Positions 7,711 through 48,561 of a stretch of 55,916 bases of DNA are shown in pieces. The number at the start of each line of letters is the position of its first letter. The first letter of the stretch is position 1. The DNA comes from an uncultured Candidatus Bathyarchaeia archaeon. Its GTDB lineage: Archaea; Thermoproteota; Bathyarchaeia; 40CM-2-53-6; CAYOZM01. A program made the translations under genes and the position numbers. The stretch is from assembly GCA_964408475.1 (NCBI GenBank), contig CAYOZM010000001.1, positions 1-55,916 on the forward strand, in the 5' to 3' direction. The notes below the pieces were generated by a model. The model was not told the DNA's origin and made no database searches. It was given only the letters and a program-made list of their open reading frames with translations.

Positions 7711-7723
7711 GCTTCATCGCGCG

Positions 7724-8190: not shown

Positions 8191-8361
8191 ATGCCCACTA
8201 ATCTCACTGTCGCAGAAGTGGCTAGGCAGATCCATTCAGATCTGTTTCGTAACTTCAAGTACGCGAAGATCTGGGGCGTAAGTGTAGAGTATAACGGCGA
8301 GAAAGTTGGAATTGACCATATGTTGATGGCTCGAGATATAGTCGAAATACATACTCGGTAG
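8191..8361 (+). CDS. Stand-alone DRG-type TGS (beta-grasp) C-terminal fragment, 56 aa
   Basis: My translation is MPTNLTVAEVARQIHSDLFRNFKYAKIWGVSVEYNGEKVGIDHMLMARDIVEIHTR. It closely parallels the C-terminal TGS of DRG GTPases (IHkdl...FKYAlVWG.SVKhnpqKVGkDH.LeDeDViqI). It is below the 60-aa ORF-track cutoff and lies 26 nt after the JAMM stop. Confidence 0.55.
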   Translation: MPTNLTVAEVARQIHSDLFRNFKYAKIWGVSVEYNGEKVGIDHMLMARDIVEIHTR

Positions 8362-8403
8362 AGACTCGAAATCGATTTATAATCGTATGAGCTTTCCATT
8401 TGA

Positions 8404-8814: not shown

Positions 8815-8851
8815 ATGTTTACTCTTTAGGGGCGCAGAGAATGATGAGTAC

Positions 8852-9277
8852 CTAAAGGTAGCGCGATATCCTCGGCAGTTCTCTTCCTAGAATCCTCCTC
8901 GCAGAATAAACTATAGCATTTGCAAATAGAATAGTGAGGGTAGCTACATCCTCGCCGGGCAGCTCCATTTCTAACCCTCCTTTCGAATACATTACACGGA
9001 TGCTATCCTCAAACTCTGGGGCGTACCTTTGAAGAAAGTAATAGATTTCGAATCTGGCGTAAGGTCTCAACTCCATAGTCCAGGCTGTTGCCCCATCAAT
9101 CTCGCAATCAACCAATCTGCCACCCATGTATTCAGCCACTTGGGCGGCCTCTGAGGAAGACAACTGTTTTATAATCTGGACCCTGAACTCCATCGCTCGC
9201 TTGACTAATTCTTCGTGAACCGAGCCGCCTTCAAATGCTGCCAAGCCAATAAGGGTTGATTTATCTATCCTCTGCAA
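8852..9277 (-). CDS. Hypothetical protein
   Basis: A 141-aa ORF with a TTG start and no motif I can name confidently. Its composition looks coding. Confidence 0.45.
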   Translation of the reverse strand: MQRIDKSTLIGLAAFEGGSVHEELVKRAMEFRVQIIKQLSSSEAAQVAEYMGGRLVDCEIDGATAWTMELRPYARFEIYYFLQRYAPEFEDSIRVMYSKGGLEMELPGEDVATLTILFANAIVYSARRILGRELPRISRYL

Positions 9278-9380
9278 CTACGGCACCATACATTGAGAAT
9301 AGGATGGCTTAAGTCTGATCGATAGGCGCGGTATCGTCTCGAGGGCCGCGTTCTCCAGCGAAGATTTTTGTAGAGCCTTT

Positions 9381-9611
9381 TCAGACACTATAGATTTCTT
9401 CGACTGAAAACAACCTATTGTTCGAAAAGAAGCCCTTTAAATCGCAGATCTCACACCAAGCTCCAACCTTTTTCTCCGAGCCTTCAGAATAGTAAATGTT
9501 CATCGCCGCTTTGCCACATCGAGGGCAGATATGGTTGGTCACTTTCTCGAGATCGAACACCTTTCTCTTCCCAATTTGACGGTTCTTCTTCGATTTTAGA
9601 TGAGGGGACAT
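9381..9611 (-). CDS. Small zinc-ribbon protein (hypothetical)
   Basis: CPRCG ... CEICD four-Cys ribbon with a basic N-terminus, 76 aa. Confidence 0.5.
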   Translation of the reverse strand: MSPHLKSKKNRQIGKRKVFDLEKVTNHICPRCGKAAMNIYYSEGSEKKVGAWCEICDLKGFFSNNRLFSVEEIYSV

Positions 9612-9646
9612 TGTATTCGCGCTCGCTCCAAAATTTTAGAGTTCTA

Positions 9647-9655
9647 TTTATAAAT
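9647..9655. promoter_or_regulatory. Candidate palindromic TATA element (TTTATAAAT)
   Basis: It lies 36-44 nt upstream of the minus-strand start at 9611, in a divergent intergenic region. Confidence 0.3.
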
Positions 9656-9883
9656 GAATTATTAAGGTAGGCGATATATTTCGAGGTTCGCTATATCTTG
9701 AGCTTCGATAGGGTCCTTCTAGTCCGAAAGTTGCCGGGTCGACTACATTTTTCTCGTCTATGGCCGGAGCTACACCTTGTAACGGAACGCGCGAAGTATA
9801 GATTCAGGCATGAGCGAAGCCAAAATTCGAATCCCGGCCTAAGCATCATCTTTTTATTCGATTCGTATGTGAAGTTACGAGCT

Positions 9884-10663
9884 ATGAGATTGGATCTATC
9901 GCTCCCTATAATTGTCTTCGCCGTAACCACGATCGCGATAGCGGCATATCCGCTCTGTGAGAGTCGGATGAAAGCGCTGTATAAGCATGAGAGGTTTAGG
10001 ACACGAGACATTGTTCTCTTGATTGTTGCCTTTTCCGTAGTTATCGCGATAACGGCCTTAGCGCCTCAGCTGGCTTTGCTAGTGTTCTTCTTGGCGATGT
10101 ATTCTATTGGGCTATTTCTTTTCGCATATACAATATGGCCTAAGTGGTACTTTGCTGTCCTCTTTCCTGCAATATTCATAGTGCTATATTTCTACCACTG
10201 GACGATTATTGAGCTGGACATCTTCTCTCTTACGTTTGTTGTATTTCTGGCTATGGCATTGAATGGTTTCTTCAGCTGGAAGACCTCCGCACTGTTCGCA
10301 GGTCTGCTAACAGTAGTCGACGTTGTCCACGTGTTTGGCACCAAAATGATGATCTCCTCGGCGTTGAAGATCGTCGCGTTGAAACTGCCTTTGACAATTG
10401 TACTCCCAACATTCCCTTCGGAGGGCCAAGTAATCATAGGGCTAGGCGATATCTTTCTTGCAATACTGCTTTCGCTACAAACCTTTCAGAAGCTAGGGAG
10501 AAATCTCAGTTTGATTTGCGCTCTTTCAATCTCGCTGATGTTTCTTGTCTTAGAGATGGTTCAGCTGAACTTTAAGTTGCATTTCTTCCCGGCCACCATC
10601 GCAGTCGTCGTCGGTTGGTTAGCGACAGTTTGTTTAAGCAAAGCGTTGAGTATCCGTCGCTAG
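9884..10663 (+). CDS. Presenilin/signal-peptide-peptidase-like GxGD intramembrane aspartyl protease
   Basis: It is polytopic (about 8-9 TM). LLTVVDVVHVFGTKMM resembles the SPP YD/WVFGT motif and IIGLGDIFLAILL is a GxGD motif. The C-terminal FFPATIAVV sits where PAL is expected. ATG at 9884 is the first hydrophobic-compatible start; the ORF track extends to 9698. Confidence 0.65.
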   Translation: MRLDLSLPIIVFAVTTIAIAAYPLCESRMKALYKHERFRTRDIVLLIVAFSVVIAITALAPQLALLVFFLAMYSIGLFLFAYTIWPKWYFAVLFPAIFIVLYFYHWTIIELDIFSLTFVVFLAMALNGFFSWKTSALFAGLLTVVDVVHVFGTKMMISSALKIVALKLPLTIVLPTFPSEGQVIIGLGDIFLAILLSLQTFQKLGRNLSLICALSISLMFLVLEMVQLNFKLHFFPATIAVVVGWLATVCLSKALSIRR

Positions 10664-10727
10664 GAATTCCACTTTAGAAGAAACTTCAGTTTAATACTGA
10701 CTTCGATGATAGTTGACTTGCTGAAAC

Positions 10728-11138
10728 ATGTTACGCACAACTGAAAAGATTCAAAGAATGCTAAGTAATGAAGAAGAGACAGAACTCAGTAAGATGAAGA
10801 TGAACGTCGTTAGAGTTCTAGCAGTTTACAAAGGGGTATCTTGGAAAACGGAGCTATTTCTGGACCTAGTGAAACTCTTGCAGTTTCTAGGCCAACCAGG
10901 CATCATAGAGTCTCGAATTCTAGATAAAGCACTTGACTCTCTCGCGTCAGACGGAATTATCTCGGTTGAAAATAGGACAAGAGGGGCAATGCTGAAGAAA
11001 GGCATCTGCAAAGATCGACTACTTCGTCTTAACGACCTTGCAGACGTGAGGAGTGTTCTTGAGAAGGACCCGGTATTTGCCCAATACATGCATAGTAGAG
11101 ACAAAATGATTAGAGATGCTCTCTCAAACTGGATCTAA
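10728..11138 (+). CDS. Hypothetical protein (possible winged-helix fold)
   Basis: A 136-aa ORF in a clean intergenic context. No diagnostic motif. Confidence 0.45.
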   Translation: MLRTTEKIQRMLSNEEETELSKMKMNVVRVLAVYKGVSWKTELFLDLVKLLQFLGQPGIIESRILDKALDSLASDGIISVENRTRGAMLKKGICKDRLLRLNDLADVRSVLEKDPVFAQYMHSRDKMIRDALSNWI

Positions 11139-11568
11139 CTCGCAGGCCGACCTCTGGAGGCGAAGTGGCCCAGAGTATTTTATCCAAGCTTGCGTTGACA
11201 ATGAAGCAGTAGGAACGGGTGCTTTTAGTTATTCCTGTTAACCTTTCGGTTACTCAACCGCATTTTCTACCTACTGGCAAACAGTTTTGATGTATCTAAT
11301 CCTTACATAATACCTCCTTCACGATAATTTAGTGGCTGAACCTATGAGCATAGATTATTCTGAGTTCTACAGGGATGCAAGCGGATACTGGCGACTGAAG
11401 CGCGTCATCAAGAAGAGGAACCGACGAGCGATCTGATATGTGCCTGGCAAGAATTCCCGAAGGCGGCCAAAGTTGGAGATTTCGGGAGGCTAATCAGTCA
11501 CAGCGCCATCAACGAATGACAATTGTTATAAACTGTGTGGAGCCGAATAATCCTAGTGAGGAACTTGT

Positions 11569-11856
11569 TTGAGCGCACAAGCCTGTCCGTATTGTAATCG
11601 AGCTCTCTACTTTTCAAGTGAGGCTGGCATGTGGTACTGCTACAGATGTAGACAGTATTACCCTTACGCCGCGACTGAAGTATACCCAACGGCACCCTAT
11701 TATTATCAGCCGCCTTACTATCCGCAACCGGTCCAGCCAATAGCGTTAAGGTCAGAGCCATCAGGCGTAGCGATCGCCGCATTCATCCTTTTTGTCATCA
11801 TCATAATTCTGATAATCGGTGGTCTTTACATCTACTGGAGAATGTTCTACCTTTAG
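11569..11856 (+). CDS. Tail-anchored zinc-ribbon protein with Pro/Tyr-rich linker
   Basis: CPYCNRALYFSSEAGMWYCYRC ribbon, a PYYYQPPYYPQPVQP low-complexity linker, and a C-terminal TM IAAFILFVIIIILIIGGLYIYW. TTG start. Confidence 0.5.
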   Translation: MSAQACPYCNRALYFSSEAGMWYCYRCRQYYPYAATEVYPTAPYYYQPPYYPQPVQPIALRSEPSGVAIAAFILFVIIIILIIGGLYIYWRMFYL

Positions 11857-11871
11857 GGTAAAGGTTGTAGA

Positions 11872-12228
11872 TTACGTAGCCACAGTCTTCCTTCTTCTCG
11901 ACCGCACTTTCGCGAGAACTAGAAGCGATGTCACTCCAAGTATCACAAAAGCCACGACTACTAGTGCCGGGATTAGAGCCACTATCAGGTACTTTACATT
12001 GAGAGGGCTGAGAACATAAAGCGGGTAAAGTCCTGCAGCCAGCGCTAAGAAAACTACTATGACAAGCTCATCCATTCGCGTCCGAACGACATTCCTAACA
12101 AGTTCCTTCCGTTGGGGATCGAATACCCACTCCTTGTCGCAACGGCCACAGTGGTACGTAAGCCAGCGTCTCTCAGGTTTGCCGACAAGTTCAAGCCCTT
12201 CACTACAGTCCGGACATCGCAAGGCCAC
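11872..12228 (-). CDS. Membrane-anchored zinc-ribbon protein
   Basis: CPDCSEGL...YHCGRCDKEW ribbon, then two predicted TMs and a basic tail RSRRRK. It is convergent with 11569..11856, 15 nt apart. Confidence 0.55.
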   Translation of the reverse strand: MALRCPDCSEGLELVGKPERRWLTYHCGRCDKEWVFDPQRKELVRNVVRTRMDELVIVVFLALAAGLYPLYVLSPLNVKYLIVALIPALVVVAFVILGVTSLLVLAKVRSRRRKTVAT

Positions 12229-12434
12229 TTATTCCACCGCTAATAAGTTAAGCGCATCATTATTTTTGTCTTATTCCTTGGCGACTGTTCACATACAACA
12301 GTGGATTAGAGCAATTCGGTACCTTCTACGCAGTTACATGGCAAGTGTGTCGAGCTTCGATAGGTCGAATTTCTAAATAATACTTTTTTAAAACGTCGGA
12401 AAACTGGATGCGCAAGAACTTGGAGGTGCTTTGA

Positions 12435-12530
12435 ATGGAGAAGAAGACCATCGCGACTATTGCCTTGCTCGCAATAGGTGTGGGCGCCGGAGTAGCTGCT
12501 TTCACTCTCAGGCGCAAGCAAAAGCAATAA
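12435..12530 (+). CDS. 31-aa single-TM micro-protein (candidate)
   Basis: MEKKTIATIALLAIGVGAGVAAFTLRRKQKQ. A GGAGGTG site lies 6 nt upstream of the ATG, a T6A4 TATA-like element is at 12384-12393, and a hairpin follows the stop. Confidence 0.35.
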   Translation: MEKKTIATIALLAIGVGAGVAAFTLRRKQKQ

Positions 12531-12548
12531 GAAACCATTCCAATCCGC

Positions 12549-12573
12549 GAGCGTGGCGTCGATAACCACGCTC
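12549..12573. terminator. Perfect 8-bp stem hairpin between convergent genes
   Basis: GAGCGTGG (12549-12556) pairs with CCACGCTC (12566-12573) around a 9-nt loop. It lies between the micro-ORF stop (12530) and the EndA stop (12650). A terminator function is inferred only. Confidence 0.3.
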
Positions 12574-12649
12574 ACACTATTCTCTAGATTCTGCATCAAA
12601 CTCCTTCTCTGGATGAGGCGCCTTCATAAAGCTCCATTGTGTGCAGCTG

Positions 12650-13219
12650 TTAGGCTCTCCACCACTTAAATATGAGATAGTCGACCTTTTCTCTCTCAGA
12701 ATCTGGTATCGCTATAATGAACTGTTTCCTTACGGTTGTCGCCAGTCTACCTGCTCTGACTATTTCGAAAGGCCCCATGGCTTCTTTCTTCTCCTTTACA
12801 GATATAATGAACGGTGCATGGTCTATTCCCGGTCCATGTTCGTAGACGGCAAAGTCTGCTCCAAACTTTATGCCAGGCGTGACGATGTAGCCCTTCTCCT
12901 TTAGGTCCTTGTACACGAGATAGGCTGAAGTGAACTCCTGGTACGTCTCTCTAGCGAGCTTCAGAAGAGTGCTTCGCTTGACCTTCCTCCCCGTAGTCCC
13001 TTCAAAGACCGCGATCTCCTTCCTCTCGTAAAGGAAAAGGCCCTCCATAAGATCTAGGATGAGAGGCACCGTGAACTCCTGGCCGGGCTTGGGCTTCGGT
13101 ATTCCTACAGGCTTGCCGTAGAATCCTTGTCTGTAGAGTTCGTTCCCGGATCTTGAATCCCAAACAACCAGACGCGTTCCAATAAGTTCCGCTTCAGCTC
13201 TACTAGACATGTTGCTCAT
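12650..13219 (-). CDS. endA: tRNA-splicing endonuclease
   Basis: The catalytic-domain pattern is present: GADFAVYEHGPGIDHAPFIISV ... TTVRKQFIIA (Tyr/His/Lys triad context). At 189 aa it is a single-unit EndA. Confidence 0.85.
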   Translation of the reverse strand: MSNMSSRAEAELIGTRLVVWDSRSGNELYRQGFYGKPVGIPKPKPGQEFTVPLILDLMEGLFLYERKEIAVFEGTTGRKVKRSTLLKLARETYQEFTSAYLVYKDLKEKGYIVTPGIKFGADFAVYEHGPGIDHAPFIISVKEKKEAMGPFEIVRAGRLATTVRKQFIIAIPDSEREKVDYLIFKWWRA

Positions 13220-13882
13220 TCAACCTGAGATTGCCAAGACTCTCACGAGATCTGCGACATCTACCGCCAGATCAGCCATTCTCTCCATATGTTGGATTAT
13301 ATCCCTGACAATCAGAACCGACGGCAAGGGCATCTTCGAATCGAGGACCTCTATGTCAAGTGTTCTATAGCTTGAGTCGATCTTCCTTTCAACTTCCTCG
13401 ACGGTCCTGGTCAACTCCATAGCCTTCGAAGGATTGAAGCTCAACGACAGAATAGTTTCCCTCAGCTTGCTTATTTCATCGAGAACGAGTGACGCGAGAT
13501 CGGAGATTCTTGCAAGATACTTTTTTTCAACCTTCCACTTTCTGTCCAGAATCCCCATCAATCTGAATCCTACAGCTTCAGCGTAATCTGCAATCTCTCC
13601 GACTTCAAAAATCAGTCGCATGAAGTCCTCTCTGCTTATCAAAAGAGATCCGACAGAAGCCACCTCTTCTAGAAGAGTGGCCTTAGACTTTTCAGACTCG
13701 TCCAAAAGCTTCAACATCGCTTGGTAATGTTCTCTTGCGCTTTTCTGTTTTCCTTCCACGACACCGTCGAGCATCAGTGCAAGCTCTCTCGTTATTTCAA
13801 CGACGTTGCGAGCATGGTTCTGGCAGATCTCATACATTCTACGCCTGATCGCAGCCTCAGTTTCCAAAGGAAACGTCATCAC
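13220..13882 (-). CDS. DUF47/PhoU-like (TIGR00153-type) protein
   Basis: An all-helical ~220-aa protein with the SREDFMRLIFEVGEIADYAE segment typical of DUF47. Its stop abuts the EndA start. Confidence 0.6.
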   Translation of the reverse strand: MMTFPLETEAAIRRRMYEICQNHARNVVEITRELALMLDGVVEGKQKSAREHYQAMLKLLDESEKSKATLLEEVASVGSLLISREDFMRLIFEVGEIADYAEAVGFRLMGILDRKWKVEKKYLARISDLASLVLDEISKLRETILSLSFNPSKAMELTRTVEEVERKIDSSYRTLDIEVLDSKMPLPSVLIVRDIIQHMERMADLAVDVADLVRVLAISG

Positions 13883-13962
13883 TCGTCCACCGGCGTCTAG
13901 TTGACTTTCGTAGAATGATACTTCGCTCAGGAATTTAAATGCTAAACTAATTTTCTATGAAG

Positions 13963-15693
13963 TCAATGAAGCCCCATCGCTTCCAGTGAAATGCCAGAAA
14001 AATATCTCCTCATCACTTCAGGAAGACTGCCAGTTTTGACTCTCACCTGCCTCCACGAATCTCTGTCTCTCAATGTCACTGTCTTATCATCCTTTGTTTG
14101 GTAGTCAACCGTTACGGCTAATGGCACCCCAACCTCATCGGCTCTTGCATATCGTCTCCCGATCGAACCTGCTTCGTCGTATTCGACATCAAAATGTTCT
14201 GCAGTTAGATTTTCATAAATTTTCTCCGCCAACTCCGGCAAGCCGTCCTTGCTTACGAGTGGCAGCACTACTGCTTGTATCGGCGCCAGATCTCTAGGGA
14301 TCTTCAGCACAGTTCTGTTTTTGACTCTGGAGTACGCGTACTCTAGAGTCGCGTAAACGAGTCTTTCAGCGCCGAAACTGGGCTCCACAACGTGCGGAAT
14401 GAACCTTCTTCCGGTCTCGGCCTTCTGCTCCAACCTGACCTCTACATGCTCAGGAAGAATTCGCAAGTCTTTACACCGATAGTATCCTTGCTCGCGGAAT
14501 TCCTTCTCAACCTCATCTGGATCAGCTTTAGCGATCAGCTCCAGAACTTCTTGCGTTCTTTCCTTAAAGGCCCGACGTACAGCAGAGGCGACTGGCCGCA
14601 AAACTTTAAACTTCTTTCTAATTGGCTCTTCATGCTTCTCGAAGACTCTAATGTCAACTCCTGAATGCTTCCAATGCATCGAGAGATCGTAATCGGTCCT
14701 ATACGCGTGGCCGGCGAGCTCAGTCCATCCCCATCTCTCCAGGAAAACCTCATGATCATAAGTTTGAGCTGAGTAGTGAGCTCTCTCTCCAAGCAGTTTC
14801 TCATGGAATCTCTGATTGCCTGAAGGTATGCCGAGTTCTGCTACGAACCTCTTCGACAGCGCCATGAAGTATGCCATCCACTCATTCAGTATATAGCCCC
14901 TGCTCAAACAATCAGCGACTGTCAGATCGAGAGGCTCCTCAACGTTTCTCAATCTTAATTCCGCAGGTACAATTCTAATGCGTTCGTTCGCTACGTTTCC
15001 TAGCTGATCGCAACTATTCTTCTCAGGATCGAAGAAGAATTCAAACTCCATTATTGTGAACTCTCGGAGTCTTATAGGTCCTTGTCTTGGAGAGATCTCA
15101 TTCCTGAGCGCCTTTCCTATTTGGGCAACTCCGAGCGGCAGTTTCTCTCTGGCGATCTCTAAGAGCCGTTTGAAATCTATGAACATACCTTGCGCAGCCT
15201 CTGGCCTACAATAACCTACGGCTTCGCTGTATGGGCCGATCGTGGTCGCAAACATAGTTTGAAAGTACTCCGGTTTAGAGAACTCTCCTCCACATTCTGG
15301 GCATCGAACCATGTTCTCTCTCATCTTATGGTCCAGTTCATCGAGAGTCAAAGACTCAGTTTCGACAGACACAGATTCTCTCAGTATATGATCAGCGCGA
15401 TAACGTCGTTTACATTTGACACACTCAACCATGGGGTCTTTGAAATGGGTGACATGCCCGGAGGCTTCAAATACTTTGCTGGGCATGACTATCGGTGTGA
15501 CTATTTCCATCAGATGTTGTTTTCTAACAAAGAAATCTCGCCACTTCTCCTCTATCTTCGTCTTCAGTCCGGCGCCAACTGGGCCGAAATCTATGAACCC
15601 GCTTGCACCACCATATATCTCGAAAGACTGCCAAAAGAATCCTCTTCTACGAGCAGTCTCTTCCAGCATCTCGTACTTGTCCGGCTCAGTCAA
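13963..15693 (-). CDS. glyS: Glycine--tRNA ligase (archaeal/eukaryotic alpha2 type)
   Basis: RRGFFWQSFEIYGGASGFIDFGPVGAGLK at the N-terminus, class II motifs, and a C-terminal anticodon-binding domain. 576 aa. Confidence 0.95.
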   Translation of the reverse strand: MTEPDKYEMLEETARRRGFFWQSFEIYGGASGFIDFGPVGAGLKTKIEEKWRDFFVRKQHLMEIVTPIVMPSKVFEASGHVTHFKDPMVECVKCKRRYRADHILRESVSVETESLTLDELDHKMRENMVRCPECGGEFSKPEYFQTMFATTIGPYSEAVGYCRPEAAQGMFIDFKRLLEIAREKLPLGVAQIGKALRNEISPRQGPIRLREFTIMEFEFFFDPEKNSCDQLGNVANERIRIVPAELRLRNVEEPLDLTVADCLSRGYILNEWMAYFMALSKRFVAELGIPSGNQRFHEKLLGERAHYSAQTYDHEVFLERWGWTELAGHAYRTDYDLSMHWKHSGVDIRVFEKHEEPIRKKFKVLRPVASAVRRAFKERTQEVLELIAKADPDEVEKEFREQGYYRCKDLRILPEHVEVRLEQKAETGRRFIPHVVEPSFGAERLVYATLEYAYSRVKNRTVLKIPRDLAPIQAVVLPLVSKDGLPELAEKIYENLTAEHFDVEYDEAGSIGRRYARADEVGVPLAVTVDYQTKDDKTVTLRDRDSWRQVRVKTGSLPEVMRRYFSGISLEAMGLH

Positions 15694-15803
15694 GTCTCAT
15701 CACGTCTAACTCTGATTCAACACTGTTGTCTCTGTCCTTAGGAATTAAAGATTCTCTATCTGGCGGCCCAATCTCGCGCATCGCCAATGGACGTAATGAA
15801 ATG

Positions 15804-16391
15804 TTAGGGTAGATTATTCCGGTTAGGGAAGAACACCTCAGATCGCTTCACTCCCCATTGATGAAAATGCGGTGCAAGTTTCTTCAAAGCCATTCGACAA
15901 AGACGCACGAAATAGCCTTGCCTCAGTTTTCTTCCTCGACCTAGTCCTTGGCATTCATGCTCTGGCAGCTCAAATTCAAGAGTGCCACTTTCAGACCGTT
16001 TGAGAAGGAAAGGATAAAACCTGCAGACGAGAGGTCGCTTGGAATAAATGCGACAGGAGACGCCATTTAGGAACATGCACCTGTTATTATTCTTCCTAAT
16101 CTCAAACTCGTAAGGTTCAGCGTCTTTCAGTCTGCCCGCAAACTCTTCAATGCGCATGCCAGTCCTACCCGCTATGGCTCGCGCCTCCGAGGCCAATATT
16201 AAGATATGACGAGCACGCTTCTCTGTGTCTCCACAACATATTGCACAGCGAACGCATTTCCACCTCAGATTTTCTGGATAAGCTATGTTCTTCTTTTTGG
16301 AGACAGCGTAGCCCGGGCTGGGTTTGGCTATATTAACGTGGCTAAAGTTATGAGCTGCGGAGTTAAGTTCACTCTTCCCGGTGGATTTCAA
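15804..16391 (-). CDS. YkgJ/UPF0153 family Cys-cluster (zinc/iron-chelating) protein
   Basis: CVRCAICCG (CxxCxxCC) plus downstream CMFL...CRIY...CRFYPF cysteines. TTG start. Confidence 0.7.
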   Translation of the reverse strand: MKSTGKSELNSAAHNFSHVNIAKPSPGYAVSKKKNIAYPENLRWKCVRCAICCGDTEKRARHILILASEARAIAGRTGMRIEEFAGRLKDAEPYEFEIRKNNNRCMFLNGVSCRIYSKRPLVCRFYPFLLKRSESGTLEFELPEHECQGLGRGRKLRQGYFVRLCRMALKKLAPHFHQWGVKRSEVFFPNRNNLP

Positions 16392-16707
16392 ACCGTGACG
16401 ATCTCACTTTCGGTTCTTAGCGAATTCCCTTGGCGAGTGATAAGCCCTGTGAGCTTCATCGCGAGATCAATTTCGCGGAACAAGCGCACCTATCGATTTC
16501 ACTGCATTGAGACGTTAAATCGCCATCGTCTTTCGGTCCTAGGCGTTGGCCGCCTCGTAAACCATTTTGAGCGCAATAGAGTAACCCCCAGCCCTTTATA
16601 TCGTTCGTCGTTTGACTCCGTCGGAGCCAAGAACAATAAATTCTTCCCGTCCCTCAGCCTCGGTGACCGTAACCCTTCTGGATCTCTCTCATCCAATCGT
16701 TCAGTAG

Positions 16708-16884
16708 CTATCTAGCTCTAACATGCTTGACTATAGGCGGCCTGACCTTTCTTAGTATGCGGTAACCACATATCGGACACTTTATCTCAGGAGTCATGGA
16801 GAGTTGCTCAGCTGTAATACTTGAGCCACAGTTGACACACTCATACAGTATTCCTCCGATCCTCTCTTCCTTTCCCTCGGCCAA
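16708..16884 (-). CDS. rpoP: DNA-directed RNA polymerase subunit P (Rpo12)
   Basis: The C-terminal core YECVNCGSSITAEQLSMTPEIKCPICGYRILRKVRPPIVKHVRAR matches the RpoP zinc ribbon. The start is uncertain: TTG at 16884 or 16893, while the ORF track extends to ATG 16965. Confidence 0.7.
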   Translation of the reverse strand: MAEGKEERIGGILYECVNCGSSITAEQLSMTPEIKCPICGYRILRKVRPPIVKHVRAR

Positions 16885-21068: not shown

Positions 21069-21842
21069 ATGGTTAGAAGTATCAGTATTCACGCATTGGA
21101 AACTTTTCCACTTGTGAAATGCGGCGACAGCTTGGCGGATATCATTGTACAAGCGGCTGAAAGAGAAGGCCTTCCGATAAAGAGTGGAGACGTAGTCGTG
21201 ATATCTCAAAAGATCGTATCTAAGGCGGAGAGGAGAGTAGTAAAGCTGAGTGAAGTGAAGGTTTCCAGCAGAGCGCGTGAACTAGCGTCCATTACCAAAA
21301 AGGACCCCAGACTCGTAGAGTTAATCTTACATACCTCACGTAGAATTGTCAAGGCAAGTCGTCAAGTCTTGATTGCGGAGACGAAGCAAGGTCAAGTATG
21401 TCTCTCAGCAGGAATAGACAAATCGAATGTTGAAGGCCCAGATTCCTATGCCCTTCTTCCCGAGAATCCGGATAAATCCGCCACTAGGCTAAAACGAAGA
21501 ATAGAACAGTTAATAGGCGGGCGAATTGCCGTCGTCATCTCCGACACTTATAGTCGCCCTTTCAGACGCGGGCAAGTTGACTTCGCCATCGGTTTCTCTG
21601 GAATCGCCCCGATAACTGACTACAGGGGCAAACCTGACCTCTTCGGTTATAGGCTTAGGTTCAAATATGTCGCAGTCGTTGATGAGCTCGCTTCAGCTGC
21701 TGAGCTCGTGAAAGGACAGGGCGCCGAAAGAGCTCCAGTCGTGATTATCAAGGGTCTTCGAGGAATAAGGCTCCGAGAAGGCTACACATCCAGAGGTTTG
21801 AAAATTTCTCGAAGAGAAGATGTCTTCAAAGGCGCTCTGTAA
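21069..21842 (+). CDS. cofE: Coenzyme F420-0:L-glutamate ligase
   Basis: [13 protein letters not shown]...[17 protein letters not shown] and the later GIDKSNV and [18 protein letters not shown] motifs. Confidence 0.88.
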
Positions 21843-24408: not shown

Positions 24409-26247
24409 TTACGCGGAAGGACTCAGTTCTATGCATGTTTGAAGTTCGGAAGCGACATGGCCTAGACCAAGATTTTCCAACGTTGCCTTCGACGGTACGC
24501 CGCGAGCGTCCCATCCTCGCTTCTTGTAGTACAGATCCAGTAATGAGTTGTATTTCTGTAAGTCTAGCTTAGAGCCTTTGTAACGTCCCATCGTCAAAGG
24601 TTCCTCGAACCACCTCGGCGGAGGCGTATCCATTCTTCGGCTCCAGTTCGACCCATACTCTCGAACCCAGAAAGCTCTAATCAACGAATAGATTCTATCG
24701 CTCACCTTGAAGAGATCGTCTAAGCTGATCGACATACCCGTGGACGCCTTTAAGAACTTCGGATACCAGTCGAGTTCAAACCCCAACTCTATCCATGGGA
24801 ACCTGCACACCACTAAGCTCTCGAACATTCCCCCTCTGATCCTCTGAAACTCGATGACCTTATCGACCTTCTCCGGAACGTACCCCTCACGCCCGAAACT
24901 CGCCTCCCACGAGATTACCCAAGCATCCTTGTGGTGAGCGCCTATCGGCGATGTGCCAAAGGCCAAAGCCATTCCCGGCATTGAGTGACATTCATACGCT
25001 GATATCTCAAGACCTTTGATATTCATAGCCCATTTCCAAGAGTCCCCTACCAAGCGTTCAGCAGCTATCTTCGTTCCTCGACCAAGCAGTTCTCCCAATC
25101 CCCGTCTGTAAGCTACATCTTCGACGATCGCTTTACTAGCTTGAAAATCGCCCCACTCCAATTTCTCCTTTACCAATCCTCTCTCTGAAGCCTCCATCGC
25201 GAATCCTATGGCGTTCCCAAGCGAAATCGTATCCAGTCCGTATTCATCAGCCATCCTATTCAACACCGAAACTTGCTTTAAGTCGGGCAACCCAATATTC
25301 GAACCTAGCATAGCCACGTTCTCGTAGTCCAGCTCAGACGGCGATTCCTCTGCATCGCAAATAACATTCCCGCACATCATGTTACAGTCTGGACACCCTC
25401 TTTGCGAAGTCTTCTGCTTCTCCATCGTTGCACCGCCTATTTCGTCAGCATGATCGAAGACTCCCTCTTTGAAATTGAAACTCGGTAAGACGCTGTTCTG
25501 CTGGCTCCACTCAATCGTTGACATCGTACCCTGCCTTCTCCAAAAAGAATAGTTGGGCTTCTTCAAGATCTCCCTGAAACTCTCCGCACGAAGGCGTTTC
25601 ACCTCTTCCCCGTCTGCCACCGGTATATCACGGTCTCCCTTCAGAACAACGGCCTTAATTCTCTTTGAGCCCATCACAGCTCCCATCCCTGGTCTGCCCC
25701 CAGATCGTCCTTCCTGAGAAACGACCGTCGAATAGCTCACAAGATTCTCCCCAGCTGGACCGATGCTCAAGATCCCCACGTTTCTACCGTGACGCTCTCG
25801 AAGCTTCCTCTCCGTTTCAAAAGTTCCGATTCCCCACAGATCTTCTGCGTCAAGTATCTCGACTACTTCATTATTGATTGAGATGTAGCTCGGCTTCTTC
25901 GCCGCGCCTGATATGACAACAGCATCAAAACCTGCTTTTCTCAAGTGAACAGCGGCCAAAGAACCGAGATTACCATCCCCGTAGCCTCCGGTTAATGGAC
26001 TCTTCGCAGCCACAACTAGTTTACCGCTACTTGGAAAACCTAGACCAGTTAAAGGTCCAACTGCAAAGATTAGTGGACACTCTGGGGATAGAGCGTTCAC
26101 GCCACGATCCGTCTCGTCCCATAGAATCTTGGCGGCCAAACCTCTACCGCCCAAGTAGGCTAATGCCGTCTCAGCATCATACGCTTGAAATTCCGCTTTC
26201 GCCTTTCGCAAGTCGAGCCTAAGTATTCTACCATTCCACCCCTTCAA
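24409..26247 (-). CDS. aor: Aldehyde:ferredoxin oxidoreductase family (tungstopterin) enzyme
   Basis: N-terminus GWNGRILRLDL, GGRGLAAKILWDE, and SGGRPGMGAVMGSKRIKAVV. Length and C-terminal domain are typical of AOR. TTG start 6 nt after GGAGGA. Confidence 0.93.
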   Translation of the reverse strand: MKGWNGRILRLDLRKAKAEFQAYDAETALAYLGGRGLAAKILWDETDRGVNALSPECPLIFAVGPLTGLGFPSSGKLVVAAKSPLTGGYGDGNLGSLAAVHLRKAGFDAVVISGAAKKPSYISINNEVVEILDAEDLWGIGTFETERKLRERHGRNVGILSIGPAGENLVSYSTVVSQEGRSGGRPGMGAVMGSKRIKAVVLKGDRDIPVADGEEVKRLRAESFREILKKPNYSFWRRQGTMSTIEWSQQNSVLPSFNFKEGVFDHADEIGGATMEKQKTSQRGCPDCNMMCGNVICDAEESPSELDYENVAMLGSNIGLPDLKQVSVLNRMADEYGLDTISLGNAIGFAMEASERGLVKEKLEWGDFQASKAIVEDVAYRRGLGELLGRGTKIAAERLVGDSWKWAMNIKGLEISAYECHSMPGMALAFGTSPIGAHHKDAWVISWEASFGREGYVPEKVDKVIEFQRIRGGMFESLVVCRFPWIELGFELDWYPKFLKASTGMSISLDDLFKVSDRIYSLIRAFWVREYGSNWSRRMDTPPPRWFEEPLTMGRYKGSKLDLQKYNSLLDLYYKKRGWDARGVPSKATLENLGLGHVASELQTCIELSPSA

Positions 26248-26842
26248 TATCGATCCTCCGAATCTACACTACACACGAAGGAAAGCTTTTTAGATTTGTC
26301 ATCCAACTCTAACGCGGAATGTTCAACCAGTTCCTCTACGACGGCTGAAACGCTCTTGACTATGTCTTCTTATAATACCTGCAAGAGGCTCTCCTTTCAA
26401 AACATCTCGTGTTACAATCTACCCCGAGCAAACATCGTCGGCCCGGCGGTCGCTTCGCGCATTCAGAAGAATCGCAAAACCGGGCTTGATTCATTCTTCC
26501 TAAACAACCAAAACAAATTCTAGTGTAAAGTCGTTCCATCTCTGCCTCTCTAAAGCCTTCAGGCTCCCAAGGGGCGCTCGTTCTTCCACCTCCACTAACT
26601 GATTGCGAGAAACAATCTTAAGTTGATATCGTTCAATCACATGAACACGAGTTGTCGCTACCCGTGGTCAAGTATACTTTCGAACACCTTGCCGAGTTGA
26701 CTAACAGCAAGGGATCGATGAAAAATGGATGTGTCAAACGCCAGAGTTGCCACTATTGCTCTACAAACTCGTATAAAAAACAGGTTACACAGAAACTGAA
26801 GAGGCACTCGCTAGGACGACAGTCACGAAACGTTGTTTGCTC

Positions 26843-43879: not shown

Positions 43880-44848
43880 CTAAATGCTCAGCTGGACACC
43901 GGCTTGCTTAAGGAACGCGTTCAGCTCAGCTCTATAGGGCATCGCCGTTATCGCACCTCGTTTCGTGACTACTAACGCACCGACTGCATTGGCTACCGTT
44001 ACAGACTTCTCTAAGTCCCATCCTTCGCATACTCCGACTAACAGGCCGGCATTCCATCCGTCGCCAGCACCAGTGGTGTCAACTGGCTTGACACTGAATG
44101 CTGGCTTCCTGATCACTCTCCTTTCCGCGGTGTTCACAAAAGACCCCTGCGCACCGAGCTTTATTCCAACCGTTCTAGGACCGAGCTTCAGAGCCCTCGA
44201 TGCCGCCTTATTAGGCTCCGCGGTTCCCAGAACAAATTGAGCTTCTTCTTTAGAGAAAGTTGCAATATCTGAAAGCTCTAAGGCTTTTCGATATGTTCTC
44301 CTCAGGATCTCCTCGTTATCCCAGACATCTGACCGAAGGGTGGGATCGAAAGAAACGGCTACCCCTGACCTTCGGGCGATTCTCATAGCATGAAAAACCG
44401 CTCCTCGAGACGGCTGTTGCGAAAGGGCAAAACCCGAAACATGAAGAACCTCAGCTCTCGATATGTAGTTCGGATCGATATCGCCGCGTTCAAGCGAGCT
44501 ATCAGCTGTCTCTCCAGTCCAAGGTCTTCGATAGAAAAGAAATGTTCGCTCGCCTGTAGTGGGCTCATTCGCCACGAATGTTATTGAGGTTCGCCTCTCT
44601 TTTTTCCGCTTGACGTTTGACACGTCGACCTCGTTTTCACGGAGGATTCCGACCAAGAAATCGCCGAATGGGTCTTCTCCTACGGCAGTTATTACGCCTG
44701 CGCTTATGCCTAGCCTAGAGACGCCGACCGCTGTATTCATTGGCGCTCCCCCGAAGCACTTCTCAAATGTTCTAGCTCTTGTGTAAGGCACTGGTTCAGT
44801 CGAAACGAAATCGACTATTATTTCGCCGATTGCAATCAAACGACTCAT
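43880..44848 (-). CDS. PfkB-family sugar (or keto-deoxy-sugar) kinase
   Basis: GGAPMNTAVGVSRLG N-terminal motif and DTTGAGDGWNAG C-terminal motif. Confidence 0.9.
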   Translation of the reverse strand: MSRLIAIGEIIVDFVSTEPVPYTRARTFEKCFGGAPMNTAVGVSRLGISAGVITAVGEDPFGDFLVGILRENEVDVSNVKRKKERRTSITFVANEPTTGERTFLFYRRPWTGETADSSLERGDIDPNYISRAEVLHVSGFALSQQPSRGAVFHAMRIARRSGVAVSFDPTLRSDVWDNEEILRRTYRKALELSDIATFSKEEAQFVLGTAEPNKAASRALKLGPRTVGIKLGAQGSFVNTAERRVIRKPAFSVKPVDTTGAGDGWNAGLLVGVCEGWDLEKSVTVANAVGALVVTKRGAITAMPYRAELNAFLKQAGVQLSI

Positions 44849-44992
44849 ACGTTATACCCTTGGACTTAACCATCCATCGTAAATTAAACGTACTAAACAA
44901 TTTAAAACAGTTAAGGCAAGAGACTGATCACTCCGCAATAACGGCTAATCTTAAATCACTAACGAGCAGTATTGAAAACCTAGGATGGCGCC

Positions 44993-45895
44993 ATGAGTTT
45001 TTGGAAACTGTCAGTCGGCGATTGGGTTTTCGCGTCGAAGAGAACTCGTTTCTTCAGTTTTGAGGAACAATTTGCGCTTAAGGAAATCGTCAGACGGATC
45101 TCAGAAATAGGCCTAGACGGCATCGACTTTCTGGTAACCGACGCAAACGATTGGAACGGACAAAGGATTGCAGAGACCCGAAATCTCGTCAAGTCTGCAG
45201 GACTTGAGGTGATCTCTGTTTCTCCAGATATATGGTCCTCTTGGCCTTTCGGATCACTTGTCAATCCGAGTAGAAAGGAAAGATTGCGCGTAGTAAGACA
45301 TGTTAAGGAGACCGCTGCAATAGGCAAACAACTGGGCGCAAAACTGCTCAACGTATGGCCTGGGTCTGATAGCATGATCTCTCCTAAGGGCGAGTCATAC
45401 TGGACTATCTGGGATAGATTCGTGAAATCCGTAGCCGAATGTGTTGACAACGCATCGGATGAGGGTTTAAAGGTCACAGTGGAATACAAGCTGAGAGATC
45501 CAGCCGAATTCCAGATCCTGAACAACTCAGACACCTTCATGAGGCTGGCTGAGTCGATTAGATCGTCGAAACTCGGAGCATGTCTAGACACTGGGCATGC
45601 TATTCAATGCCGGGAGCATCTTCCATCAGTTGTTAACAAACTGGCTAAGTGGCTTTTTCACGTTCACTTGGACGACAACTACGGCGACTGGGATGATGAC
45701 CTACCTCCCGGCTACGTTCATGACTTTTCTCAGTTGTTCGAAGCGTTGAGGATGGTCAATTACAGAGGATACCTCATGTTCGACCTCTTCCCGCTTGTCG
45801 ACCCGTTTGGTGAGGTACGAAGAAGCAAGGAGTACGTGCAAACAGTGTGCTCGAGAATTCGTTCAGGAAGGACTTGGCTCAAGAGGCGTCGTTGA
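44993..45895 (+). CDS. Xylose-isomerase-like TIM-barrel protein (sugar/sugar-phosphate isomerase or epimerase)
   Basis: AP-endonuclease-2/XI-like pattern: GLDGIDF, LNVWPG, CLDTGH, HVHLDDN. Confidence 0.85.
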   Translation: MSFWKLSVGDWVFASKRTRFFSFEEQFALKEIVRRISEIGLDGIDFLVTDANDWNGQRIAETRNLVKSAGLEVISVSPDIWSSWPFGSLVNPSRKERLRVVRHVKETAAIGKQLGAKLLNVWPGSDSMISPKGESYWTIWDRFVKSVAECVDNASDEGLKVTVEYKLRDPAEFQILNNSDTFMRLAESIRSSKLGACLDTGHAIQCREHLPSVVNKLAKWLFHVHLDDNYGDWDDDLPPGYVHDFSQLFEALRMVNYRGYLMFDLFPLVDPFGEVRRSKEYVQTVCSRIRSGRTWLKRRR

Positions 45896-46015
45896 AGAAG
45901 CGGTATGGACTAGAAAGTCGCTTTCACTCGGTATTTCCGGATTCAAAACTCTTCTCGGTACGAAAGATATCTTAAATTTTGAATCTGAATAACTATCCGT
46001 GAGGCCGAAAGGACG

Positions 46016-46660
46016 ATGAATGAAGAGAAGCAGATTGAGGAAGAGCTTAAGACCGATTTGATAAAGTGCATGATCTCCCTCCATCAAAGAGGTCTAATGA
46101 CAGGTGTAGGCGGGAATGCAAGCGCAAGAATTCCTGGTTCAGATGAGATATGGATAACTCCAAGCGGGCTTTACAAGCCTAGACTTCGAGTTGAAGACTT
46201 GGTTAAGATAGATCTTCAAGGAAACATTGTTGAGGGCGTATTCAAGCCTTCGATGGAGTGGTACTTTCACGTAGCCATTTACAAGAAGAGAAGCGATGTA
46301 AATGCTGTCGTCCATACACATAATCCCGTCGCCACGGGTTTGGCGCTAGCTGGAGTAACCATCAAGCCGATAACACTAGAGGCAGCTCTAATGTTGGCTA
46401 GAGTTCCGATAATCCCATTCGTTTATCCTGGAACGAAGGAGCTGGGTGAAGCCGTAGGGGAACACGTGTTAGGCAATAGACTGTTGCTGCTACAGAACCA
46501 TGGAGTCATAGCCGCGGGCTACGATCTGATAGAGGCAGTCTCAGCCGTCGAGATACTCGAAGAATGCGCAACCATGATGCTGGTAGCGAGCCACTTTCGA
46601 GAGCCGGCTGTGATTCCTCCGCACGATATAGAACTGATAAAGAAACTCTACAGGATCTAA
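46016..46660 (+). CDS. Class II aldolase/adducin-family protein (FucA-like aldolase or AraD/UlaF-like 4-epimerase)
   Basis: GGNASARIP, VVHTHNPVATGLA, LLLQNHGVIAAG. 214 aa. Confidence 0.85.
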   Translation: MNEEKQIEEELKTDLIKCMISLHQRGLMTGVGGNASARIPGSDEIWITPSGLYKPRLRVEDLVKIDLQGNIVEGVFKPSMEWYFHVAIYKKRSDVNAVVHTHNPVATGLALAGVTIKPITLEAALMLARVPIIPFVYPGTKELGEAVGEHVLGNRLLLLQNHGVIAAGYDLIEAVSAVEILEECATMMLVASHFREPAVIPPHDIELIKKLYRI

Positions 46661-46674
46661 GTGGAGAAAGATGC

Positions 46675-48561
46675 ATGGTTAACGGCTACGTAGGGCAGCT
46701 GCTGCGAGTAGATCTTTCAACGAACACCTTGAAAACTGAGGCTTTGGATCTTGACCTAGCTAAGAAGTACCTAGGCGGTAGCGGTCTGTCAGGGAGGATA
46801 ATCTACGATGAAGCACCGCCAGAGGTCTCGCCGTTCGATCCCGATAACCGACTTGTCTTCATGACCGGACCGATAACTGGAACAATAGCGCCGGCCTTCG
46901 GCCGATACGTCGTCTGTACGCGGTCTCCTTTGACAGGAATATGGGCTGAAGCCCATTCCGCAGGTTTCTGGGGGCCCGAACTGAAGTTTGCAAACTTCGA
47001 TGGGATAGTTATACAAGGGAAAGCTGAATTTCCAGTCTACCTTTGGATCAAGGATGGAGAAGTAGAAATCAAATCCGCGGAGTGCATCTGGGGAAGAGAT
47101 ACCTTTGAAACTGAAACATTGATCAAGAAAGAATTGGGGGAAGAGAGACTTAGAGTTGCTTGCATAGGTCCTGCCGGAGAGCGACTTGTTAAAATTGCTA
47201 ATGTAATGAATGACCTTGCAGAGGGAACGGCGCGGACAGCTGGAAGATGCGGAACTGGAGCCGTCATGGGTTCAAAGAACCTGAAGGCGATAGCGGTTCT
47301 GGGAACTCGATACTCTGTCCTTCCTGCTGCAAGAGACGAGCTACTGAAAGAGTATGTGAAGAAGATACACATCACTATCAGAAGCCATCCCACGGTTCAA
47401 ATCTACGCTTCTTTCGGAACCGATGGAATAATGAATATGATGCATGAGTACGGAGATGTACCGATAAAGTACTGGACCGAGGGATACTGGCCGGAGGGTG
47501 TGGACAAAATTAGTGGAGAAGCTATGGCAAGGAGAATACTTGTCAAACAGAATGCTTGCTACAGATGCCCAATAGCTTGCCGAAGATACGTGAAAGTAAG
47601 TGAAGGGCAGTATCAGACTGTTGAGGGTGAGGGCCCTGAGTATGAGAGCGCTGCTTCGCTCGGCGCTCTATGTCTTAACGACAATCTCGAATCTATCGCC
47701 AAGGCAAACGAGTTGTGCAATAGATATGGCATAGACACGATATCGACGGGGAGCGTGATGGCATTCGCGATGGAATGCCGCCAAAGAGGTTTGATAACTG
47801 ACCACGACATAGATGGAGTGGACTTAAGGTGGGGTAACCATCTGGCTATGATCGAAATGATACATAAGATTGCAAGAAGGGAAGGATTCGGAGCTACACT
47901 TGCAGAGGGAGTCAAGAGAGCAGCGGAGATCATAGGACACCGCGCCGATGAGTTTGCAATGCATGTGAAGGGGTTGGAGATACCTATGCACGATCCGAGA
48001 GCCTTCAAGGGGATGGGCCTCCAATACGCGACATCGCATAGGGGGGCATGCCATTTGAGAGGACTGGTTTACGAAATAGAACAGGGCGGCAGAATTCCGG
48101 ACTTGGGAATACATGAGCGAGTGGAGAGATTTCCAGTCGAGGGAAAAGCTCGAATCGTGATAACGATGCAGAACTGGCACGAAGTACTGGACAGCCTGAT
48201 AATGTGCAAATTCGCCTTTCTCCCGCCAGGCTCGGTTGCAGCTATATTCTCTATGGTAACGGGTTGGACGGTGAGGCATCAAGAACTTATGGAAGCTGGA
48301 GAAAGAAGCTGGAACGTCAAGAGAGCATTCAATATCAAATGTGGCGTTACCGCGAGGGATGATACATTGCCGAGGAGACTCTTATCTGAACCGCTGAGAA
48401 ACGGCGGGTCCAAAGGTCAAATAGTCGAACTAGACAAAATGCTTCCGCAGTATTATAAGTTGAGAGGGTGGACCCCCAATGGCATCCCCACAAAGGAGAA
48501 ACTAGACTCACTGGGTCTACATGATATAGCAAACGACTTAGCGAAGTACGTAGCCAACTGA
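46675..48561 (+). CDS. aor: Aldehyde:ferredoxin oxidoreductase family enzyme (second paralog)
   Basis: N-terminus NGYVGQLLRVDLS, GGSGLSGRIIYDE, CGTGAVMGSKNLKAIAV, and CYRCPIACRRY (4Fe-4S ligand context). ATG at 46675 lies just after the aldolase stop. The ORF-track N-extension overlaps the aldolase gene. Confidence 0.93.
   Translation: MVNGYVGQLLRVDLSTNTLKTEALDLDLAKKYLGGSGLSGRIIYDEAPPEVSPFDPDNRLVFMTGPITGTIAPAFGRYVVCTRSPLTGIWAEAHSAGFWGPELKFANFDGIVIQGKAEFPVYLWIKDGEVEIKSAECIWGRDTFETETLIKKELGEERLRVACIGPAGERLVKIANVMNDLAEGTARTAGRCGTGAVMGSKNLKAIAVLGTRYSVLPAARDELLKEYVKKIHITIRSHPTVQIYASFGTDGIMNMMHEYGDVPIKYWTEGYWPEGVDKISGEAMARRILVKQNACYRCPIACRRYVKVSEGQYQTVEGEGPEYESAASLGALCLNDNLESIAKANELCNRYGIDTISTGSVMAFAMECRQRGLITDHDIDGVDLRWGNHLAMIEMIHKIARREGFGATLAEGVKRAAEIIGHRADEFAMHVKGLEIPMHDPRAFKGMGLQYATSHRGACHLRGLVYEIEQGGRIPDLGIHERVERFPVEGKARIVITMQNWHEVLDSLIMCKFAFLPPGSVAAIFSMVTGWTVRHQELMEAGERSWNVKRAFNIKCGVTARDDTLPRRLLSEPLRNGGSKGQIVELDKMLPQYYKLRGWTPNGIPTKEKLDSLGLHDIANDLAKYVAN

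Follow-up and report, generated by a model that had tools for sequence, protein, structure and literature searches.

The window analyzed here is a stretch of 55,916 nt from an uncultured Bathyarchaeia archaeon (source assembly of 1.22 Mb, 91% complete), in which four genes between positions 43880 and 48561 encode a PfkB-family sugar kinase, a TIM barrel protein resembling xylose isomerase (XI), a class II (zinc) aldolase and a tungsten-type aldehyde:ferredoxin oxidoreductase (AOR). Across genomes the conserved unit is the aldolase-AOR pair and not the four genes together; the juxtaposition of these two genes is far beyond chance, and they very probably form a functional couple. In the reading that we prefer, with a probability of roughly 55%, the couple acts in the breakdown of a rhamnose-like deoxy-sugar and is fed by the TIM barrel protein and the kinase.

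As an early tally of close homologs (13/15 with an adjacent AOR) was lineage-biased, the pair was followed in a sample of 401 Thermoproteota genomes, in which AOR orthologs were defined by at least 50% identity. The aldolase ortholog was present in 62 and the AOR ortholog in 36 of these genomes, and both were present in 32, meaning that the aldolase ortholog accompanies the AOR ortholog in 32/36 genomes, compared to 5.6 expected (odds ratio 89; Fisher 9e-26, uncorrected for shared ancestry). Where both occur, the genes are adjacent in 16 genomes belonging to nine families (about half, phylum-wide), separated by a seryl-tRNA synthetase (SerRS) gene in 4 genomes of family f39, and unlinked or on different contigs in 12. 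The same-strand order of aldolase followed by AOR was found at loci L001, L005/L039, L038, L041-L048, L064 and L066 (Ignisphaera), in the Bathyarchaeia families f4 and f19, as well as in families f45, f46, f50, f68, f69, and f75, with 8-37 nt between the two genes in most cases. In a fifth genome (L004) the SerRS gene follows the aldolase and the AOR is located 90 kb away. The only genome of the same genus in the sample (G188, 94% complete) had neither the aldolase nor the TIM gene at the thresholds used, and the aldolase-AOR and kinase-TIM units are therefore both accessory within the genus.

The aldolase (214 aa, positions 46016-46660, plus strand; PF00596, 169 bits) has the size of FucA and was aligned with E. 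coli FucA, RhaD, AraD, UlaF, and YgbL together with archaeal sequences (24 sequences in total, 19 archaeal). Its zinc-binding residues H100, H102, and H162, equivalent to His92, His94, and His155 of FucA and to His141, His143, and His212 of RhaD, are invariant in 24/24 sequences, and E81, within the motif PSMEW, takes the place of the catalytic Glu (FucA Glu73, RhaD Glu117), where AraD and UlaF carry Asp. The proton for the acceptor carbonyl comes from the neighbouring subunit, where it is donated by Tyr113' in FucA and by Glu171' in RhaD (PMC6202814). The column of RhaD Glu171' holds E122 in the aldolase and Glu, or Asp in one row, in 19/19 archaeal rows (the alignment of this loop is possibly 1-2 positions off), while the column of FucA Tyr113 holds Thr120, two residues before E122, so that the protein is RhaD-like and not FucA-like at this point. 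The epimerase residues of AraD, which we take to be, in numbering and role, Asp76, Asp120', and Tyr229' (the last on a C-terminal extension; positions from the aligned E. coli AraD), were all absent from the aldolase in this alignment, with Glu81 in place of Asp76, Ala124 in place of Asp120 and nothing at Tyr229, as the C-terminus stops 17 residues short of the AraD end and forms no tail that could carry this tyrosine. The original prediction had left two active sites open for this protein, that of the FucA/RhaD aldolases and that of the AraD/UlaF epimerases; the former is present, with the zinc histidines and the Glu/Glu pair, and the latter is not. Judging from its sequence, the protein is a class II aldolase of the type dependent on dihydroxyacetone phosphate (DHAP), with the catalytic residues of an aldolase and not of an epimerase.

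None of the NCBIfam equivalogs reached its cut-off for the aldolase (best scores 134, 126, 125, 121, and 106 bits against cut-offs of 250-300). The top match was a subfamily model named L-ribulose-5-phosphate 4-epimerase (134 bits, cut-off 251); the OtnC model scored 125 bits and the model of the haloarchaeal ribulose-1-phosphate (Ru1P) aldolase 106 bits (cut-off 300). The closest solved structures were Streptococcus pneumoniae FucA (4C24, 121 bits) and, as second, the 5-deoxyribulose-1-phosphate aldolase DrdA (6BTD, 109 bits). Given that no equivalog cut-off was reached and that the FucA and DrdA scores are nearly equal, the protein is best described as a member of the aldolase family without an assigned specificity. 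It is the single match to the class II aldolase family in the genome and is 79% identical to the aldolase of a rhamnose-type cluster (L001); a genome-contig search with the lone aldolase sequence returned a 35%-identical actinomycete gene as its sole match. The tree of the aldolases had too little resolution to serve for fine placement.

The AOR (628 aa, positions 46675-48561, plus strand; PF02730, 259 bits and PF01314, 518 bits) aligns over its full length with solved enzymes, including 9MQX (553 bits), 9G7J, and 1AOR from Pyrococcus furiosus (519 bits, the lower end of a 519-553 bit range). It keeps Cys288, Cys291, Cys295, and Cys494 of 1AOR, which we take to be the ligands of the [4Fe-4S] cluster, as well as Glu313 and His448, presumably of the active site (positions counted in the alignment; motifs CYRCPIAC, the Cys of LIMCKF, GPEYES, and GACHLRG). 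It is predicted to be an intact AOR of the canonical 1AOR type, tungsten-type by family; the choice between tungsten and molybdenum is not readable from sequence. In a phylogenetic tree the 13 tested partner AORs formed one clade (support 100/99) that left out 9 other AOR-family members encoded in the window's genome, and the window AOR was sister to that of L001 (69% identical). This genome encodes eleven AOR-family genes, an unusually large set for 1.22 Mb, located in the window (24442-26250, minus strand) and on contigs C44, C14, C36, C17, C27, C21, C4, C100, and C61, with 29-45% identity to the aldolase-linked AOR. The canonical AOR is considered an enzyme of broad specificity for aldehydes from amino-acid fermentation, and to our knowledge a physiological substrate has been established for almost none of the AOR-family enzymes. 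What distinguishes the present clade from the P. furiosus enzyme is its fixed aldolase partner, an indication that its physiological aldehyde is a defined one. As AOR-family tungsten enzymes are abundant in anaerobic archaea, such a partner gives one of their clades a concrete, testable substrate.

The XI-like TIM barrel (300 aa, positions 44993-45895, plus strand; PF01261, 118 bits) is a candidate sugar isomerase of the two-metal aldose-ketose class. Its closest structures were 3KTC (uncharacterised, 91 bits) and the L-rhamnose isomerase (L-RhI) of Pseudomonas stutzeri (45-48 bits). In the latter the first metal is bound by Glu219, Asp254, His281, and Asp327 and the second by His257 and Asp289 (PMC11485043). 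All six ligands align with identical residues in the TIM barrel, i.e., E164, D199, H225, and D264 for the first metal and H202 and D234 for the second, and the DDDL motif is present. The single-metal E-D-H-E site of the UlaE/OtnI type was not found in the window protein: UlaE, YgbM (OtnI), a second TIM barrel from a close relative (L059_TIM2) and the TIM barrels of L108 and L064 carry Glu in the last ligand column and no DDDL, where the window protein has Asp264 and DDDL. The placement among isomerases and epimerases left open by the original prediction thus comes out, by metal ligands and by comparison with UlaE, as L-RhI/XI type and not UlaE-like. The RhaI and XI equivalogs stayed below cut-off (RhaI models 37-39 bits, xylA_Arthro 33 bits, against cut-offs of 447-647), and we regard the protein as a distant, shorter relative of the two-metal isomerase class whose substrate is not readable from homology. 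Its orthologs (36-43% identity) directly adjoin FGGY kinases of the L001 type, and at some of these loci the stretch also encodes a class II aldolase and an AOR; L061 and L072 combine the TIM-family ortholog and the FGGY kinase with a class II aldolase.

Three observations on relatives of the TIM barrel are recorded separately. The L061 stretch (2700-16870), from another Bathyarchaeia lineage, encodes an AOR, a luciferase-like oxidoreductase, a PfkB resembling 2-keto-3-deoxygluconate kinase, the TIM ortholog, an FGGY kinase, a class II aldolase, an enolase-superfamily dehydratase, an RraA-like aldolase, and a major facilitator superfamily transporter, and resembles phosphorylative and sugar-acid routes side by side. 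At L075 (G037:C19:2674-3528) a TIM ortholog of about 36% identity is interrupted by one in-frame TAG and directly followed by an FGGY kinase; the TAG may reflect a pseudogene, a sequencing error or recoding. On contig C27 of the window's genome, a TIM paralog (L076:2211-3110, minus strand; 30% identity to the window TIM, with a near-complete two-metal signature, and the genome's closest relative of the isomerase from family f50) lies 6 kb from another AOR paralog (9297-11108, plus strand), which may be a second isomerase-AOR association.

The kinase (322 aa, positions 43880-44848, minus strand; PF00294, 220 bits) is fructokinase/IolC-like. It passed no NCBIfam cut-off (best IolC_N with 255 bits, cut-off 300, and fructokinase with 224 bits, cut-off 450), matched Khk over the C-terminus only (E = 2e-4) and had the fructokinases 3HJ6 and 5EY7 as closest structures. 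Its counterpart in the close relative L059 shares 86% amino-acid identity with it and is likewise syntenic with the TIM gene. A search of the window's genome for a RhaB-like kinase found none, and PfkB is therefore the only kinase candidate adjoining the pair.

All four genes named in the original prediction were confirmed in place by strong Pfam matches, as was the divergence of the minus-strand kinase from the plus-strand genes; the 144 nt between kinase and TIM barrel (44849-44992) are A/T-rich and presumably contain divergent promoters. The longest AOR frame opens at 46564, inside the aldolase gene; since relatives and solved AORs align from the in-frame ATG at 46675, this was taken as the start, which lies 14 nt past the aldolase stop (TAA, 46658-46660) and not 12 nt as proposed. 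The spacer (46661-46674) contains GGAG at 46663-46666, 8 nt before the ATG, and implies, as a prediction from sequence, co-transcription and coupled translation of aldolase and AOR. Between the TIM barrel and aldolase genes lie 120 nt (45896-46015) with an A/T-rich TATA-like box (TTAAATTTT, 45972-45980) and GAGG at 46001-46004. The tight plus-strand string proposed earlier therefore holds for aldolase and AOR only; a possible separate promoter in the 120-nt gap agrees with the finding of the pair elsewhere without the TIM gene.

Gene sets of equivalent function surround the pair in other genomes. At L001 it is flanked by genes for a RhaI-like isomerase (TIGR02635, 382 bits) and an FGGY kinase; within 7 kb there are also a GH106 gene and a LarA scoring above the cut-off of the lactate-racemase equivalog. 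In family f50 a tight operon of aldolase, AOR, FGGY kinase, and TIM barrel occurs in three genomes (L111, L109, and L115; L111 comes from a single-contig genome of 2,077,567 bp). The f50 kinase reaches 479 bits with the rhamnulokinase model TIGR02627 (cut-off 528) and shares 37% identity with E. coli RhaB, the TIM barrel is of the XI class with the same two-metal signature, and in L111 a sugar transporter is encoded divergently upstream of the operon. In Ignisphaera (L066) a LarA and two FGGY kinases are found 5 kb from the pair. LarA homologs in fact recur within about 5 kb of it, as high-scoring matches in L001 and L066 and as distant LarA-like genes (about 22% identity) in f4. As such quartets recur with non-orthologous isomerases and kinases, the window can be seen as their version with PfkB and a short barrel. 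A scan of 201 Bathyarchaeia genomes for PF06134 (E. coli-type RhaA) gave matches only in six f21 genomes, none of which had the aldolase at E <= 1e-30, and this family is therefore no marker for the pair; the RhaI-type isomerases of L056 and L057 escaped the scan.

According to the proposed route, the TIM barrel would isomerise a free aldose, most likely a 6-deoxyhexose, to the ketose, which the divergently encoded kinase would then phosphorylate, presumably at C1. The zinc aldolase, with its RhaD-like Glu/Glu pair, would split the ketose-1-phosphate into DHAP and a short aldehyde; its substrate is most likely a 6-deoxyhexulose derivative such as L-rhamnulose-1-phosphate, giving L-lactaldehyde. 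The AOR, translated right behind the aldolase, would oxidise this aldehyde to the acid (lactate) and pass the electrons to ferredoxin, a direction that we infer; the potential of acid/aldehyde couples is sufficiently low for the reduction of ferredoxin. The DHAP would feed the glycolytic and pentose-phosphate genes just downstream of the AOR (class II fructose-1,6-bisphosphate aldolase, phosphofructokinase, rpe, transaldolase, and transketolase). We lean slightly towards a deoxyhexose yielding lactaldehyde as the chemistry of the pair, while the odds that the TIM barrel and PfkB feed it are about even. A bolder version, which we consider doubtful, would make the AOR clade a dedicated L-lactaldehyde:ferredoxin oxidoreductase, complexed with the aldolase and channelling the toxic aldehyde in the manner of the bacterial RhaEW fusion. 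Anaerobic archaea would thereby use both halves of a 6-deoxyhexose in a phosphorylative pathway and obtain low-potential reduced ferredoxin from the aldehyde half, and in this genome the route would employ two unrecognised enzymes, a short two-metal TIM deoxy-sugar isomerase and a PfkB 6-deoxyketose 1-kinase.

Several observations weigh against the proposed route, and most of them bear on its strongest rival, in which two independent units happen to be neighbours. Here the aldolase-AOR pair would be a salvage or detoxification couple, acting on 5-deoxyribulose-1-phosphate or methylthioribulose-1-phosphate from radical S-adenosylmethionine by-products (giving acetaldehyde, similar to the DHAP shunt) or on Ru1P from nucleosides (giving glycolaldehyde), and the kinase and TIM barrel would be a separate entry for hexoses, from aldose to ketose to ketose-6-phosphate, that leads into the downstream glycolytic genes. 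The orthologous order of all four genes was seen in no other genome among those examined, and the kinase-TIM and aldolase-AOR units each occur without the other. In L059 (82-84% nucleotide identity) the order RACo-RidA-TatA-PfkB-TIM is kept, and past the TIM gene there follow a 2-oxoacid dehydrogenase cluster, a single-metal TIM barrel, a different class II aldolase, and a zinc-dependent alcohol dehydrogenase; as this relative has the kinase and TIM barrel without the pair, the latter can be viewed as a cassette that landed beside them. The pair itself sits amid housekeeping genes in many lineages (e.g., thiolase and MoeA in f4; also L064), is interrupted by a same-strand SerRS gene in the four f39 genomes (L116:10163-11446, L117:11301-12572) and is unlinked in f40 and f51, so that a dedicated sugar operon is not its general context. 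To this may be added that C6 and not C1 is the position phosphorylated by the kinase's nearest characterised relatives, that the gap before the aldolase permits separate transcription from its own promoter, and that the aldolase is nearly as close to DrdA as to FucA and also matches the haloarchaeal Ru1P model. Moreover, FucA-like archaeal aldolases accept many aldehydes (PMC9700705), and lactaldehyde is therefore not established as the product.

The two-unit explanation has nonetheless to contend with the closest aldolase and AOR relatives (L001) and the f50 operon, which adjoin rhamnose-type isomerase and kinase genes, with the recurrence of LarA homologs near the pair, and with the TIM orthologs that adjoin FGGY kinases, accompanied by a class II aldolase in L061 and L072. 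The Ru1P variant was suggested by the Ignisphaera locus, where a form III-like RuBisCO and a HAD protein lie directly upstream of the pair (L066:5432-7554); it is weakened by the HAD protein being similar to archaeal phosphoglycolate phosphatases and not a ribulose-1,5-bisphosphate (RuBP) phosphatase, and by the search of the window's genome, in which RuBisCO was not found. The second aldolase of L059 is 40% identical to that of the window, comes from a clade sitting with RhaI and FGGY genes and lies, together with the alcohol dehydrogenase, within 8 kb of the kinase and TIM genes. A kinase and TIM barrel followed by an aldolase and an aldehyde redox enzyme, i.e., the same logic with different parts, is thus kept in both genomes. 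Taken together, we hold the chance neighbourhood of two units to be rather unlikely. The first proposal of the original prediction, an isomerase-kinase-aldolase route with the AOR at the aldehyde step, is best supported for the aldolase and AOR (by their conservation and co-inheritance across the phylum, the aldolase residues, the two-metal ligands of the isomerase and the equivalent clusters); its claim of a single four-gene module is only partly borne out, since quartets of the same functions exist elsewhere and the orthologous four do not.

A second rival assigns the pair to the supply of lactate for coenzyme F420 or, alternatively, to a reversed AOR that reduces an acid with ferredoxin to an aldehyde, which the aldolase would condense with DHAP. 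In Methanocaldococcus jannaschii a FucA-like aldolase and a lactaldehyde dehydrogenase have reportedly been proposed to make L-lactate for F420. The genome has three homologs of the CofE family (F420-0:gamma-glutamyl ligase), one of them in the window (21069-21830, plus strand), in L108 the pair has a CofE gene 5.5 kb away, and the pair is often found outside sugar clusters. Against this stand the L111 operon with its kinase, isomerase, and sugar transporter and the GH106 neighbour in L001, which point to catabolism, and the fact that no other gene of the F420 lactate branch was seen next to the pair; we regard this explanation as very unlikely. The window CofE homolog is 49% identical to that of L108 and bears in its own right on F420 synthesis by this archaeon.

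The second proposal of the original prediction was that the TIM barrel and the aldolase-family protein are 3- and 4-epimerases similar to UlaE and UlaF, converting a pentulose-5-phosphate to xylulose-5-phosphate for the downstream genes, with the AOR unrelated to them. The 4-epimerase name of the top NCBIfam model and the presence of rpe, transaldolase, and transketolase downstream would fit, yet the idea fails every residue test: it was rejected because the aldolase is without the AraD residues and the TIM barrel, with DDDL and the terminal Asp as in L-RhI and XI, is not UlaE-like, and the AOR is, moreover, the conserved partner of the aldolase, which leaves this reading highly improbable. 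Further candidates were discarded, namely an OtnI/OtnK/OtnC-like tetronate route (the TIM barrel does not belong to the OtnI, i.e., YgbM, class, and an aldehyde product is required for the conserved AOR partner), myo-inositol catabolism, suggested by IolC_N as the top kinase match (score under cut-off, and no iolB, iolD, iolE, or iolG nearby), and a sulfoquinovose-type route with a PfkB 1-kinase, for which no support was found.

The proposed route resembles the RhaA-RhaB-RhaD and FucI-FucK-FucA pathways of E. coli, in which an isomerase, a ketose kinase, and a class II zinc aldolase produce DHAP and lactaldehyde, the latter being then oxidised or reduced (AldA or FucO). The aldolase shares the zinc histidines and the Glu117/Glu171' pair with RhaD, and the isomerase shares the two-metal ligands with L-RhI. 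It differs from these pathways by its archaeal host, a ferredoxin-linked tungsten-type AOR in place of the NAD enzyme, PfkB in place of an FGGY kinase, an isomerase of 300 aa that is distant from RhaA and RhaI, and an aldolase of 214 aa that passes no equivalog cut-off. The closest described system is RhaEW from Chloroflexi, Bacilli, and others, an L-rhamnulose-1-phosphate aldolase fused to an L-lactaldehyde dehydrogenase, whose aldolase reaction is seen only with the dehydrogenase working (PMC3870299). Both systems couple a class II aldolase-family enzyme tightly to the oxidiser of its aldehyde, but RhaEW is a gene fusion with a short-chain NAD dehydrogenase, whereas here two genes are involved and the AOR type carries tungstopterin and a [4Fe-4S] cluster. 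The haloarchaeal Ru1P-aldolase pathway also uses an archaeal FucA-like aldolase, giving DHAP and glycolaldehyde, a separate redox enzyme and a PfkB-family kinase; there, however, the aldehyde is reduced by an NADH enzyme, the aldolase model is matched here far below its cut-off, and neither a ribose-1,5-bisphosphate isomerase nor a RuBP phosphatase lies beside the pair. In 5-deoxyribose salvage (the DHAP shunt), the kinase, isomerase, and class II aldolase DrdK-DrdI-DrdA yield DHAP and acetaldehyde (PMC6079011). The three-gene logic is the same, and DrdA is the second-best solved relative of the aldolase. DrdK and DrdI, however, presumably belong to the MtnK and MtnA families and not to PfkB or the XI-like TIM barrels, and we know of no AOR in that salvage route. 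The UlaE/UlaF, SgbU/SgbE, and AraD systems likewise place the AP_endonuc_2 and Aldolase_II families side by side, but here the proteins lack the catalytic residues of either epimerase type.

What is new is most likely a phosphorylative route of the deoxy-sugar type that employs a ferredoxin-linked tungsten-type enzyme at the aldehyde step, together with an unusual isomerase and kinase. The original prediction knew of no description of an AOR in place of the NAD-dependent dehydrogenase, and our search of open-access full text on AOR with lactaldehyde, rhamnose, or fuculose likewise found no paper describing the combination; a search of the literature on Bathyarchaeia with rhamnose or rhamnulose surfaced none describing the route among the papers listed. 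The routes so far described for rhamnose and fucose in archaea are, as far as we know, non-phosphorylative. If the proposal is true, a phosphorylative pathway for deoxy-sugars would exist in archaea, and the aldehyde half of rhamnose or fucose could supply strict anaerobes with reduced ferredoxin, for hydrogen formation or acetogenesis, in place of propanediol excretion. It would also add to the picture of Bathyarchaeia using plant and algal polysaccharides in sediments.

A last observation concerns the neighbourhood of class II aldolases more generally. Directly after the TIM gene, L059 encodes a complete 2-oxoacid dehydrogenase complex (E1 alpha, E1 beta, E2, and E3; L059:5772-10419), and a similar complex with a lipoate ligase is convergent with the aldolase-AOR pair in L048 (222-5860). 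Such complexes are recurrent beside class II aldolases and are unexpected in presumed strict anaerobes.

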